Notes under the pieces: generated by a model
The model's input: only the letters and a program-made list of their open reading frames with translations
What the model was told of the DNA's origin: nothing
Database searches by the model: none
Shown here: piece after piece, positions 40,727 to 43,769 of the stretch
Layout of the letters: every line of letters begins with the position of its first letter
Numbering within the stretch: position 1 is the stretch's first letter
Position numbers and translations under genes: made by a program
Sequence record: ON528738
DNA: 64,000 bases
DNA from: Shigella phage ESh28
Reading direction: 5' to 3' (one strand)

Positions 40727-40757
40727 TTTACAAGCTGACAAGACTATGGTATAGTAG
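40724..40757 (+). promoter_or_regulatory. T4-type early promoter
   Basis: gtttac 40726-40731, tggtatagt 40747-40755; -10 lies within inverted repeat caagacta/tagtcttg. Confidence 0.6.
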
Positions 40758-40784: not shown

Positions 40785-40967
40785 ATGGAATTGGTAAAGG
40801 TAGTTTTTATGGGGTGGTTTAAGAATGAAAGTATGTTTACTAAAGAAATCACAATGATGAAAGATGACGTTCAATGGGCTACTACTCAATATGCTGAAGT
40901 TAATAAAGCATTAGTTAAAGCTTTCATTGATGACAAGAAAGTATGTGAAGTGGATTGCCGAGGATAA
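40785..40967 (+). CDS. dmd: Dmd antitoxin (inhibitor of RnlA/LsoA)
   Basis: 60 aa, MELVKVVFMGWFKNESMF; length, own early promoter and position next to gene 41 match T4 dmd (61.5). Confidence 0.7.
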   Translation: MELVKVVFMGWFKNESMFTKEITMMKDDVQWATTQYAEVNKALVKAFIDDKKVCEVDCRG

Positions 40968-40968
40968 T

Positions 40969-41226
40969 ATGCATATTGTTTTATTTAAACCTACTCCATA
41001 TAACGTCAGGAAAAATACTCAATTCAAAGCACTTATTGCAGATACGTGGGAATTGGTGTTAGATATTCCAGCAGAAGAAAGTCCTCCATTTGGTCGAGTG
41101 GAATTTATTAAGTTTGCTGTACGTCCTACGAAGAGACAGATTCGTCAGTGTAAAAGGTATTTTCGTAAAATCGTTAAGCTAGAGAAACAGTTTGTAACAT
41201 GTGATTATGCAGAAGTTTTAAAATAG
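40969..41226 (+). CDS. hypothetical protein, 85 aa (T4 61.4 position)
   Basis: Track ORF 40927..41226 trimmed to ATG after cgaggataat. Confidence 0.5.
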   Translation: MHIVLFKPTPYNVRKNTQFKALIADTWELVLDIPAEESPPFGRVEFIKFAVRPTKRQIRQCKRYFRKIVKLEKQFVTCDYAEVLK

Positions 41227-41286: not shown

Positions 41287-41580
41287 ATGAAAAAATTTAT
41301 CTTTGCTACAATTTTTGCTTTAGCTTCTTGTGCTGCTCAGCCTGCTATGGCAGGATATGATAAAGATTTGTGTGAATGGTCTATGACTGCAGATCAGACT
41401 GAAGTTGAAACTCAAATTGAAGCGGATATTATGAATATCGTTGAGCGCGATCGTCCTGAAATGAAAGCTGAAGTGCAAAAACAACTTAAGTCTGGTGGTG
41501 TAATGCAGTATAATTATGTTCTGTATTGCGATAAAAACTTTAATAACAAAAATATCGTAACCGAAATCACAGGCGAATAA
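41287..41580 (+). CDS. sp: spackle periplasmic protein Sp
   Basis: 97 aa, signal peptide MKKFIFATIFALASCAAQPAMA; matches T4 Sp (61.3) as recalled. Confidence 0.7.
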   Translation: MKKFIFATIFALASCAAQPAMAGYDKDLCEWSMTADQTEVETQIEADIMNIVERDRPEMKAEVQKQLKSGGVMQYNYVLYCDKNFNNKNIVTEITGE

Positions 41581-41581
41581 T

Positions 41582-42214
41582 ATGATTTATTATATGCACA
41601 AAAATCCACCGTTTAAATACGGTAAATTTCCTGATGCACAATGTTATAACATAACGCCTGATGAAAATAACCGTGGATATCTTATTGGCACAATTTTTGT
41701 AATTGTTAAAGATAACGAAATCGTTGCCTGGGCAGATTTTAAAGGTACAACATATGATGTTAATCCGGTGCCTTTCACATATTACAATTTAATGGATTTG
41801 GCATACGATTATAATTGGTTTAATCATGACACGTTGGCTCATATTGAAGGTGTAGGATTTGACATCTCTTATTCTAGCTACTCATTGTGTCCTATGAGTC
41901 GGGCTCATAAAGAACCTGAATATTTTTCATTTAGGAAACGTGTAAACTTTAAACGCAACACAGAGTATGTCGGTGGAATCTTTGTTAAAGATAATCGAAT
42001 TACTCGCATTATTTATCCTTTGGGCTGTGGTCAAAAAGATATTGATGTTGATTTAGACTTTACTGAAAACATCATTAATCATATTGCTTCTGTGTATTTT
42101 GGTATCGATCACAAAATTGTAATATGTGGATATGAATTACCGTTTGAAGAACAACCTAAAGTAAAAGTTTCTATTGACGATCAAATTTTTAATGCTTTTA
42201 TGAATAAAGGTTAA
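41582..42214 (+). CDS. 61.2-like protein, 210 aa (possible anti-DarT factor AdfA homolog)
   Basis: Track ORF; position matches T4 61.2; shares VKDN motif and 14-aa C-terminal tail with the next ORF. Confidence 0.5.
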   Translation: MIYYMHKNPPFKYGKFPDAQCYNITPDENNRGYLIGTIFVIVKDNEIVAWADFKGTTYDVNPVPFTYYNLMDLAYDYNWFNHDTLAHIEGVGFDISYSSYSLCPMSRAHKEPEYFSFRKRVNFKRNTEYVGGIFVKDNRITRIIYPLGCGQKDIDVDLDFTENIINHIASVYFGIDHKIVICGYELPFEEQPKVKVSIDDQIFNAFMNKG

Positions 42215-42215
42215 T

Positions 42216-42572
42216 ATGTATAGTTCTGAATTTTCATATTTAAAAATGGAAAAAATTTCATACGATTTTATAGATGAAAAGGTTTATTACAGTTTCCATG
42301 AACCACGTTTTAATAGTGAGGTTGGGTTTATTGTAGTAAAAGACAATTTCATTTTAAAGATATATTCGGCATTAAAGGATTTTCACTACGAAAATATTAA
42401 CCTAAAATTTGATAAAGAAAACGTTCGTAATTGTGCAGTAACAATTACAGGAAATAAAGGCACATGTGTTATGCTATCTGATGAAATTAATGATTTGCTA
42501 AATGATGCCGAAAAGGTTGCTATTCCATCTATTGATGACCAAATTTTTAATGCTTTTATGAATAGAGGTTAA
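42216..42572 (+). CDS. truncated paralog of the 61.2-like gene, 118 aa
   Basis: Track ORF; ends in SIDDQIFNAFMNRG, near-identical to the preceding gene's SIDDQIFNAFMNKG. Confidence 0.5.
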   Translation: MYSSEFSYLKMEKISYDFIDEKVYYSFHEPRFNSEVGFIVVKDNFILKIYSALKDFHYENINLKFDKENVRNCAVTITGNKGTCVMLSDEINDLLNDAEKVAIPSIDDQIFNAFMNRG

Positions 42573-42573
42573 T

Positions 42574-42738
42574 ATGAAAACATATAAAGAATTTATTAAA
42601 GAAGATATGGTAGCTGGAGATTCAGGTGGTAATCCTGAAAATATCTCTACTGGAACAACATCAGGTGCTGTAGTAAATAAAGGTCCTGAACAGATTCCTA
42701 AAAAGAAAAAAGAGGAATCTAAAGAAAAAGAAGAGTAA
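42574..42738 (+). CDS. hypothetical Lys/Glu-rich protein, 54 aa (T4 61.1 position)
   Basis: ATG 2 nt after previous stop; ends 2 nt before primase start. Confidence 0.4.
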   Translation: MKTYKEFIKEDMVAGDSGGNPENISTGTTSGAVVNKGPEQIPKKKKEESKEKEE

Positions 42739-42740
42739 AA

Positions 42741-43769
42741 ATGTCATCAATACCTTGGATTGATAATGAGTTTGCGTATCGTGCATTAGCTCATTTACCT
42801 AAATTCACACAAGTAAATAATAGTTCAACTTTTAAATTGCGGTTTAGATGCCCTGTTTGTGGAGATTCAAAAACCGACCAGAATAAAGCTCGTGGATGGT
42901 ATTATGGTGATAATAATGAAGGAAATATTCATTGTTATAACTGTAACTATCATGCACCAATCGGAATATATTTAAAGGAGTTTGAACCTGATTTATATCG
43001 TGAGTATATCTTTGAAATAAGAAAAGAAAAAGGTAAAAGTCGTCCAATAGAAAAACCTAAAGAACTTCCTAAACAACCTGAGAAGAAAATAATTAAATCT
43101 CTTCCGTCATGCGTTAGATTAGATAAACTGGCGGAAGACCATCCAATTATAAAATATGTAAAAGCTCGTTGTATTCCAAAGGATAAATGGAAATTTCTTT
43201 GGTTTACAACCGAATGGCCTAAATTAGTTAATAGCATAGCACCGGGAACATACAAAAAGGAAATTTCTGAGCCTCGTCTTGTTATTCCAATTTATAATGC
43301 TAACGGAAAAGCCGAGTCTTTTCAAGGACGCGCATTAAAGAAAGATGCTCCTCAAAAATATATCACCATCAAAGCTTATCCTGAGGCAACAAAAATTTAC
43401 GGTGTTGAACGAGTTAAAGATGGTGATGTATATGTTCTAGAAGGACCTATAGATTCGCTTTTTATTGAAAATGGTATAGCTATTACGGGTGGTCAATTAG
43501 ACCTAGAAGTTGTTCCATTTAAAGATAGACGAGTGTGGGTTTTAGATAATGAACCTCGTCATCCTGACACTATCAAGCGAATGACTAAATTAGTTGATGC
43601 AGGAGAAAGGGTTATGTTTTGGGATAAATCTCCCTGGAAATCAAAAGATGTTAATGATATGATTAGAAAGGAAGGTGCAACCCCTGAACAAATTATGGAA
43701 TATATGAAAAATAATATTGCCCAGGGGTTGATGGCTAAAATGCGGCTATCTAAATATGCTAAGATTTAA
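42741..43769 (+). CDS. 61: DNA primase gp61
   Basis: 342 aa; zinc ribbon CPVCGDSKTD...CYNCNYH and Toprim domain; matches T4 gp61. Confidence 0.9.
   Translation: MSSIPWIDNEFAYRALAHLPKFTQVNNSSTFKLRFRCPVCGDSKTDQNKARGWYYGDNNEGNIHCYNCNYHAPIGIYLKEFEPDLYREYIFEIRKEKGKSRPIEKPKELPKQPEKKIIKSLPSCVRLDKLAEDHPIIKYVKARCIPKDKWKFLWFTTEWPKLVNSIAPGTYKKEISEPRLVIPIYNANGKAESFQGRALKKDAPQKYITIKAYPEATKIYGVERVKDGDVYVLEGPIDSLFIENGIAITGGQLDLEVVPFKDRRVWVLDNEPRHPDTIKRMTKLVDAGERVMFWDKSPWKSKDVNDMIRKEGATPEQIMEYMKNNIAQGLMAKMRLSKYAKI

Follow-up and report, generated by a model that had tools for sequence, protein, structure and literature searches.

AdfA is the new name of T4 gp61.2, a protein that associates with the toxin DarT1 and neutralises it (PMC11825919), and which is also described in PMC9391042. 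Like AdfA, the AdfB protein of ICP1 and AdfN, the NADAR protein gp30.3, are phage anti-DarT factors, and several such factors are layered in single phages (PMC11825919). The region that holds dmd and tifA, the second of which encodes a ToxN inhibitor in T4, has been proposed as an anti-toxin-antitoxin (anti-TA) island (PMC9391042). Here we analysed the equivalent locus in a 64,000-nucleotide stretch of Shigella phage ESh28 (record ON528738; 64 kb, hereafter the window), in which open reading frames (ORFs), a direct repeat and motif matches were positioned on the + strand. Directly 3' of sp in the dmd-tifA-sp-61.x island we find adfA, an ORF of 210 amino acids (aa), followed by a 118-aa ORF, which we refer to as the short ORF, and both genes end in nearly the same sequence. 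We consider it likely that the short ORF is an old, one-domain paralog of AdfA, that the two proteins carry a constant functional tail, and that the DNA encoding this tail serves as a recombination cassette junction.

The 210-aa ORF is a member of an already known family. Its residues 1-210 align with positions 1-211 of the Pfam profile PF23813 at 456.4 bits (cut-off 27), it falls into phrog_3781 (E 4e-137), and the encoded protein has 77% identity with T4 AdfA and 83% with RB69 AdfA. The short ORF reaches profile positions 113-211 only, with 34.1 bits against a gathering threshold of 27 and a score that leans heavily on the C-terminal tail. It makes up its own family, phrog_4122 (E 7e-73), to which no function has been assigned, and in phage RB51 it is annotated as 'RB32ORF033c, similar to gp61.2'. 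AdfA ends in SIDDQIFNAFMNKG and the short protein in SIDDQIFNAFMNRG, the common pattern being SIDDQIFNAFMN(K/R)G. In the DNA this tail lies within a 49-nt direct repeat, located in a repeat search, of which 46 of 49 bases are identical and whose copies (42170-42218 and 42528-42576) are spaced 358 nt from start to start. Each copy opens exactly at the tail serine codon (S197 in AdfA, S105 in the short protein) and closes through GGT TAA T ATG, the last triplet being the start codon of the gene that follows. When DDQIFNAFM was back-translated with degenerate codons, the pattern matched only the two tail sites in the window, against a mean of 0.00 in 100 shuffles.

The original prediction, made from the letters of the window, had put this repeat at about 45 bp, with coordinates that differ from ours by an immaterial 3-4 nt. 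Its description of two adjacent + strand ORFs with a common tail and stop/start junction agrees with what we observe, as does the internal VKDN motif, present twice in AdfA (FVIVKDN and IFVKDN) and once in the short ORF (IVVKDN). The first ORF had been named 61.2/AdfA, which the full-length profile match of 456 bits bears out. The second had been called a shorter paralog, and BLASTP indeed aligns its residues 21-118 with AdfA 111-210 (36% identity, E 2e-9). The locus also has the character of an anti-toxin island that was proposed for it, with dmd, a tifA homolog and adfA together.

The bodies of the two proteins have diverged much further than their tails. With the tail excluded, AdfA and the short ORF are 32% identical in amino acids and 45% in nucleotides, with 36% identity at third positions over 78 aligned codons. 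At identical residues the same codon is used in 10 of 12 cases in the tails and in 8 of 25 cases in the bodies (Fisher p = 0.005). The bodies are saturated at synonymous sites, so the near-identical tail is to be read as a constrained and homogenised C-terminal motif and not as the mark of a young duplication. If part of adfA had recently been duplicated in tandem at this site, with the terminal repeat as the undiverged edge of the copy, this would explain why the genes are adjacent on one strand and have the tail, the stop/start junction and the VKDN motif in common, and Pfam does place the short ORF on the C-terminal half of AdfA. The original prediction had favoured such a duplication, now diversifying. 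Similarity does extend beyond the 14-aa tail, as the BLASTP alignment shows, but the bodies are too diverged for a recent copy, and the distribution of the short gene makes this origin highly improbable.

By tblastn we found the short gene in 336 phage records, of which about 294, from Tequatrovirus, reach at least 80% identity, and about 270 records hold an intact ORF with 95-100% identity. A junction query located a contiguous adfA-to-short junction in 157 records, and a 96-nt query located a contiguous sp-to-short junction without adfA in 141, T2 and fFiEco06 included. The counts rest on these two queries because 241-nt junction queries can be inflated by piece-joining. The copy-number comparison with T-even genomes thus speaks against a local duplication, the short gene standing alone after sp in about 141 records. 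In T2 it is the gene that the annotation calls '61.2'. T4 has adfA only, slur14 has a T4-type adfA allele together with the short gene, and the window and RB51 have both genes. Gaprivervirus (VR25, DK-13 and the related P8 and M719-6WT.2) carries short-gene orthologs that are 44-50% identical, with orthologs lying directly after sp in the genus; a word-indexed protein search did not recover these orthologs, which were found by tblastn. Two uncultured T4-like lineages (P0060 and P0064) have a still more divergent short gene, as the sole family gene directly after sp. Since the short ORF is conserved as an independent gene across T4-like phages and in its own family, the pair is not a young local duplication.

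It is scarcely credible that the short ORF is a remnant in decay and without function. One record fits such a description, the Tequatrovirus BCH953P2 (L009, 1501-1854), in which an in-frame stop at codon 9 (MYSLNFHI, then stop) reflects a sequencing error or else a rare pseudogene. Against this stand the roughly 270 records with an intact ORF, a ratio of nonsynonymous to synonymous substitution (dN/dS) of 0.22-0.36 in the body among orthologs, the retention of the ribosome-binding site after adfA has been lost, and a confident fold in the AlphaFold2 (AF2) model, with a predicted local distance difference test score (pLDDT) of 82 and a predicted template modelling score (pTM) of 0.71. Together these observations point to a functional, independently maintained gene, an old paralog rather than a fragment of its neighbour.

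The tail extends to a third class of proteins, of about 145 aa, from Dhakavirus and Gaprivervirus. The gene for this class lies directly after sp and falls into phrog_8539; the class has no Pfam family, and no NCBIfam model was found for any of the three tail-bearing classes. Its members end in S[IV]DDQIFNAFM[NK]R[GD], and the overall tail consensus, which the short ORF matches, is S-[IV]-D-D-Q-I-F-N-A-F-M-[NK]-[RK]-[GD]. In Gaprivervirus the ~145-aa gene is followed by the short gene, so this genus again has two adjacent tail-bearing genes. As all three classes carry the tail, the slot after spackle combines variable bodies with a constant tail. The bodies of P0057 and VR25 are 35% identical and that of P0064 is barely alignable, with the tail unaltered; the P0064 and P0060 bodies are at most about 47% identical to their nearest cultured-phage relatives, with DDQIFNAFMNRG identical. 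Between lineages the tail has a dN of about 0 despite a dS of 0.35-1.0, from which it follows that the peptide is under very strong purifying selection.

The family is tiny: HMMER, run in full against 1.84 billion representatives, returned 10 hits, all T4-like, and scans of IMG/VR (16 loci) and of metagenomes (12 loci) returned no tail-bearing classes beyond the same three. Among 185,579 species genomes of bacteria and archaea, none matched the degenerate DDQIFNAFM pattern, and a bacterial origin or antitoxin mimicry of the tail was rejected on this ground. The tail-bearing family appears to be confined to phages.

In its AF2 model the short protein forms a single domain with strands at residues 8-17, 22-29, 34-42, 45-51 and 56-64, a helix at 67-78, and then another strand and another helix. 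The tail, predicted as a separate helix (106-115, pLDDT about 55), is joined on through a linker of low confidence (102-104). The AdfA model (pLDDT 68) passes through the order strand-strand-strand-strand-helix twice, with VKDN hairpins at 38-51 and 127-147 and the tail as a terminal helix. The short protein is thus like the AdfA family (PF23813) in its tail, its VKDN-hairpin domain and its locus, but unlike it in having one domain and not two, in its length of 118 aa against 208-216 aa, in an asparagine at the specificity position discussed below, in its separate PHROG and in its occurrence without adfA. A Foldseek search of viral models with the short model as query returned the Gaprivervirus short protein (E 7e-11), AdfA (1e-4) and the VR25 145-aa protein (1.2e-4). 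No solved structure resembling the domain was found, and AdfA has been stated to be without structural relatives (PMC11825919).

Pairwise BLASTP between the classes detected similarity in the tail only. With the tails removed, hhalign comparisons of the N-terminal half of AdfA, its C-terminal half, the short class and the 145 class scored above column shuffles (z 2.3-5.7), the observed score being reached by 0-1 of 24 shuffles. Without its tail the short class aligns at least as well with the N-terminal AdfA domain (z 5.7) as with the C-terminal one (z 4.2), which again counts against a recent copy of the C-terminal half. We take this as moderate evidence, drawn from profiles and models, for one ancestral domain that is present twice in AdfA and once in the short and ~145-aa classes. 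Instead of the short gene being a truncation, AdfA may have arisen through duplication or fusion.

Why the tails should be so alike in their nucleotides is a further question, and because of the same-codon excess within the window it is not fully answered by selection on the peptide. Were the repeat a by-product of that selection only, with no role in recombination, presence and absence of the genes would go back to unrelated illegitimate deletions. The peptide is indeed invariant across genera while synonymous sites vary (CAA/CAG, GCT/GCC/GCA, TTT/TTC, AGA/CGA), with a tail dN near 0, and the deletion of adfA in T2-type genomes is not bounded by the long repeat. We nevertheless think this explanation unlikely, in view of the same-codon excess and of the way in which tail sequences are distributed. 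Over 45 loci the tail haplotypes sort by phage clade and downstream neighbour, and not by gene class. Synonymous and N/K states specific to a clade are common to different gene classes: Gaprivervirus 145-type and short tails both have GCC and AAG-CGA, and Tequatrovirus AdfA and short tails both have GCT and AAT-A(G/A)A. Three codon pairs for Asp-Asp (GAC GAT, GAT GAC and GAT GAT) have been shuffled between both genes. One 45-nt haplotype, the most frequent, stands at the end of the short gene in 10 loci and at the end of AdfA in 4 loci of the T4 type, in every case immediately before 61.1, and the T4 AdfA tail is the haplotype that elsewhere ends the short gene before 61.1. The identity of the repeat has two causes, purifying selection on the peptide and homogenisation between neighbouring tails, the second of them established statistically.

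The boundaries of natural indels point the same way. Over 1.5 kb, T4 and slur14 differ by a single indel of exactly 358 bp, the period of the repeat, between flanks that are 97-98% identical. An indel of this size would be the expected product of unequal crossing-over between the tails, or of the reverse insertion. Between slur14 and T2-type genomes the difference is a single 615-bp deletion that takes adfA and leaves 11 nt, TAGAGGTTAGT, the end of the AdfA tail with its GAGG Shine-Dalgarno sequence before the short ORF (1970-2003 in L002, T2; 1552-1563 in L007, fFiEco06). Since this tail end remains in place, the T2 state is derived from the two-gene state. The ribosome-binding site, and with it expression of the short gene, would have been preserved after the loss of adfA.

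From these footprints we propose the following. The slot between sp and 61.1 in T-even phages would hold members of one small phage-only family, each with a fast-evolving alpha/beta domain (a five-stranded sheet with the VKDN hairpin, and a helix), a short linker and a near-invariant C-terminal helix. AdfA would have two such domains, and the 118-aa ORF and the ~145-aa class one each. The 49-bp repeat consists of the constant-tail codons and the stop/start junction holding the ribosome-binding site of the next gene. Because the repeats directly flank the short gene, homologous recombination of the T4 type between tails could delete, insert or swap whole genes in frame. The three natural states, with adfA only (T4), the short gene only (T2) or both (the window, RB51 and slur14), may have resulted in this way, judging by the exact indel boundaries. 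The repeat would then be both a constrained coding motif and a recombination substrate, an in-frame cassette junction.

Such a role has precedents. T4 recombination acts on homologies of less than 50 bp (PMC2839356), and the same locus has been reshaped through 6-10-bp microhomologies (PMC9391042). In the promoter early stem-loop (PeSL) shuffling of T4-type phages (Arbiol et al. 2010), small accessory genes are likewise flanked by direct repeats, about 50-100 bp long, and recombination moves whole genes and leaves their neighbours unharmed (PMC2839356). PeSLs are, however, intergenic cassettes of promoter and stem-loop, whereas the repeat described here is coding sequence with a stop/start junction, and has neither promoter nor stem-loop. 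The dmd-tifA events of Srikant, Guegler and Laub (2022) took place in the same anti-toxin island, with the same recombination machinery and with short homologies on either side as the route by which copy number changed (PMC9391042). They differ in being laboratory evolution that worked on 6-10-bp microhomologies and gave tandem arrays, whereas here a natural 49-bp repeat is tied to presence and absence across natural isolates.

We also considered the 49 bp as a cis-acting nucleic-acid element, that is a promoter, a terminator or an RNA structure. The downstream gene does have its Shine-Dalgarno sequence and its start codon in the last 12 nt or so, and in Tequatrovirus tails (42187-42216 and 42545-42574) the series AATGCTTTT, 12 nt, TAATAT resembles by eye the MotA box and -10 element of a T4 middle promoter. 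Both junctions, however, fold no better than shuffles (z 0.14 and 0.04), the repeat contains no terminator-like sites, and sigma-70-like sites occur at chance level (16 against 12.7 +/- 3.6). The TGCTT core is lost from the Gaprivervirus (GCC) and Mosigvirus (GCA) tails, in which the peptide is kept. There is therefore very little to favour a cis-acting element.

The function of the proteins can be approached through the residue at which RB69 AdfA can be converted. The substitution R164H switches on DarT1 neutralisation in RB69 AdfA, and T4 has a natural histidine there (PMC11825919). Aligned with the annotated RB69 gp61.2, H167 of the window protein stands opposite RB69 R164 and the T4 histidine, and in the AdfA model it lies within the second helix, at 162-173. 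The adfA allele of the window appears from this residue to be in the DarT1-neutralising state. Among natural alleles the position (42080-42082 in the window; compared with loci L008, L030, L031, L005 and L045) varies, with histidine in the window and T4, arginine in most Mosigvirus and asparagine in Sf21-like Tequatrovirus alleles (NNINNIAS). The window adfA is also a mosaic, in that its first part (41582-41750, about 55 N-terminal aa) encodes an N-terminus of the Mosigvirus/RB69 type, MIYYMHKNPPFKYGKFPDAQCYNITPDENN, against MLYQMHKCKDTYKYKGAQCYIINRENAG in the T4 type.

In the short protein the residue at the RB69 R164 position is N72, and it is aspartate in the VR25, P0060 and P0064 short proteins, thus neither histidine nor arginine. 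It is possible to see the short protein as a minimal DarT1 inhibitor that replaces AdfA in phages such as T2. Its match to PF23813 exceeds the gathering threshold, it retains the tail and the domain that bears the specificity position of AdfA, and the gene is kept where adfA has been deleted. We regard this as distinctly unlikely. Apart from the Asn or Asp at the critical position, the tail accounts for much of the Pfam score, and the more distant proteins of the short class, at 22.5-26.1 bits, fall under the cut-off of 27. Published work counts T2 as naturally without an adfA homolog and maps its DarTG1 resistance to adfN (PMC11825919). Because of that mapping and of the Asn/Asp residue, the short protein probably does not act against the DarT1 that has been studied. 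Family, location and selection suggest that it is most likely another toxin-binding counter-defence factor, with a target other than DarT1.

The invariance of the tail, its amphipathic I-F-x-x-F-M face, the acidic cap and the tethered, low-confidence helix of the models are what one would expect if it were a short motif that docks onto a conserved partner. The constant tail could then be a common handle for a common partner, or it could be necessary but not sufficient for toxin binding. A sliding-clamp (gp45) motif was considered for the tail and dropped when the gp43 and gp55 C-termini were compared: gp43 of the window ends in SLDFLFG, and in the two C-termini nothing but an initial S-[LI]-D is like SIDDQIF. 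Resemblance of the tail is also poor to QL[SD]LF, the beta-clamp motif of E. coli, and to DDDIPF, the tip of the single-stranded DNA-binding protein. One could go further and see in the DDQIFNAFM helix a portable docking handle that tethers interchangeable toxin-binding domains to one partner, with the handle DNA as the in-frame recombination site of plug-and-play anti-toxin cassettes. The partner might be a phage protein associated with replication or single-stranded DNA, or a conserved surface of ADP-ribosyltransferase toxins; the one-domain gene of T2 would counter a toxin other than DarT1, and AdfA would be a fusion of two domains. We offer this extended scheme as a speculation, and a doubtful one.

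The internal proteins Ip1-3 of T-even phages offer a parallel. They too are counter-defence proteins with only a short terminal peptide in common, with different targets, and are encoded by polymorphic cassettes at fixed loci (PMC12373910; PMC3012670). Their constant peptide, unlike the tail described here, is N-terminal, is cleaved and directs packaging, whereas ours is C-terminal and is predicted to be a tethered amphipathic helix. A further difference is that the bodies of the tail-bearing proteins are distantly homologous to each other. The capsid targeting sequence MKTYQEFIAE is not found at the start of AdfA (MIYYMHKN) or of the short ORF (MYSSEFSY), and only the neighbouring 61.1 has a similar start. 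This N-terminus, MKTYKEFIKE (42574-42603), matches the T4 internal proteins' capsid targeting sequence at 8 of 10 positions, including the I-x-E cleavage context. Because of this resemblance gp61.1, a 54-aa acidic and basic protein of the anti-toxin island, might perhaps be packaged and injected. A literature search found no published description of a capsid-targeting-like gp61.1 start.

Several points weigh against the reading of an old paralog with a functional tail and a recombining junction. The function proposed for the short protein is drawn from family, location and selection. When T2 was crossed with RB69 delta-adfA under selection on DarTG1, the one region that all chimeras shared was adfN (30.3) and not the locus studied here (PMC11825919), which argues, weakly and on two T2 chimeras, against neutralisation of DarT1 by the short protein. 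Wild-type RB69 AdfA does not associate with DarT1 although its tail is intact (PMC11825919), so the tail alone is not the DarT1-binding element. For the homology of the bodies across the classes, all three of them, the profile scores are weak (pairwise P 6e-4 to 0.05), the class alignments are shallow (effective number of sequences about 1.5-2) and the structures are predicted models, that of AdfA at a pLDDT of only 68. Part of the same-codon excess in the tail could be due to a bias to T- and A-ending codons. The T4 state would be compatible with a deletion or an insertion. Finally, the census counts come from megablast junction queries and are approximate.

The segment 41200-42800 of the window is 98% identical to phages RB51 and RB68 and belongs to Tequatrovirus. 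The order on the + strand is 41 helicase, dmd, 61.4/tifA, sp, the 210-aa ORF, the 118-aa ORF, 61.1 and 61 primase, and the junctions between the two ORFs and 61.1 consist of a stop codon, one base and ATG (Table 1). The gene after the tail-bearing gene differs between phages (L003, VR25, 2359-2580; L036). It is a 61.4/TifA-like ORF (MFVLTQFSKA...) in Gaprivervirus and Dhakavirus and a 65-aa ORF (MTTAICTGSK...) in Mosigvirus and some Gaprivervirus-like phages. As 61.1 or one of these ORFs may come next, the tail junction has been joined to at least three different downstream genes.

Table 1. Features of the locus, with positions in the window
Feature	Position	Strand	Basis
dmd (61.5), anti-RnlA/LsoA factor, first gene of the anti-toxin island	40785-40967	+	Pfam Dmd E 1.6e-46; RB51 annotation; role PMC9391042
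61.4 / tifA homolog	40969-41226	+	DUF7279 match; coordinates taken over from the RB51 annotation
sp (spackle), conserved left neighbour of the variable slot	41287-41580	+	Pfam T4_Spackle E 3.5e-45
adfA (61.2), 210 aa, two predicted tandem alpha/beta domains, then constant tail	41582-42214	+	PF23813, phrog_3781, AF2 model
His167 codon CAT, equivalent of RB69 AdfA R164	42080-42082	+	Alignment to annotated RB69 gp61.2
Repeat copy 1: codons of AdfA S197-G210 (tail helix), stop, 1 nt, ATG of the short ORF; Shine-Dalgarno-like AAGG inside	42170-42218	+	
Short AdfA-family paralog (RB32ORF033c type, phrog_4122), 118 aa, one predicted alpha/beta domain, linker and constant tail	42216-42572	+	PF23813, phrog_4122, AF2, dN/dS
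Repeat copy 2: codons of short-ORF S105-G118, stop, 1 nt, ATG of 61.1; Shine-Dalgarno GAGG inside	42528-42576	+	
61.1, 54 aa, downstream gene; one linkage block with the preceding tail haplotype	42574-42738	+	
61 primase	42741-43769	+	

The best sigma-70-like site of the region (TTTACA, 17 nt, TG-TATAGT) lies at 40727-40755, just 5' of dmd, and fits the early promoter reported for dmd-tifA in T4. Several relatives carry homing-endonuclease genes, one of them HNH, beside the primase gene or between gene 41 and dmd (L010, 3743-3906; L011, 3586-3945; L041, 871-1491), and these are a further local source of recombination in the region.

Our results do not overturn current views. AdfA itself was already known, the short ORF is a one-domain variant of its family, and what the analysis adds is an extension of a family and of a recombination principle that were both known. 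Few phage inhibitors of DarT toxins are known, AdfA among them, and how AdfA acts is poorly understood. A repeated domain with a constant tail, together with versions that have a single domain, suggests minimal constructs with which the toxin-binding part could be mapped. Phages that have been scored as adfA-negative, such as T2, still have a member of the family, and this matters where genotype is correlated with sensitivity to DarTG. If the coding repeat is indeed a cassette junction, it would explain how counter-defence genes in the proposed anti-TA island can be reshuffled in frame, and the tail system would be a C-terminal counterpart of the leader system of the internal proteins.

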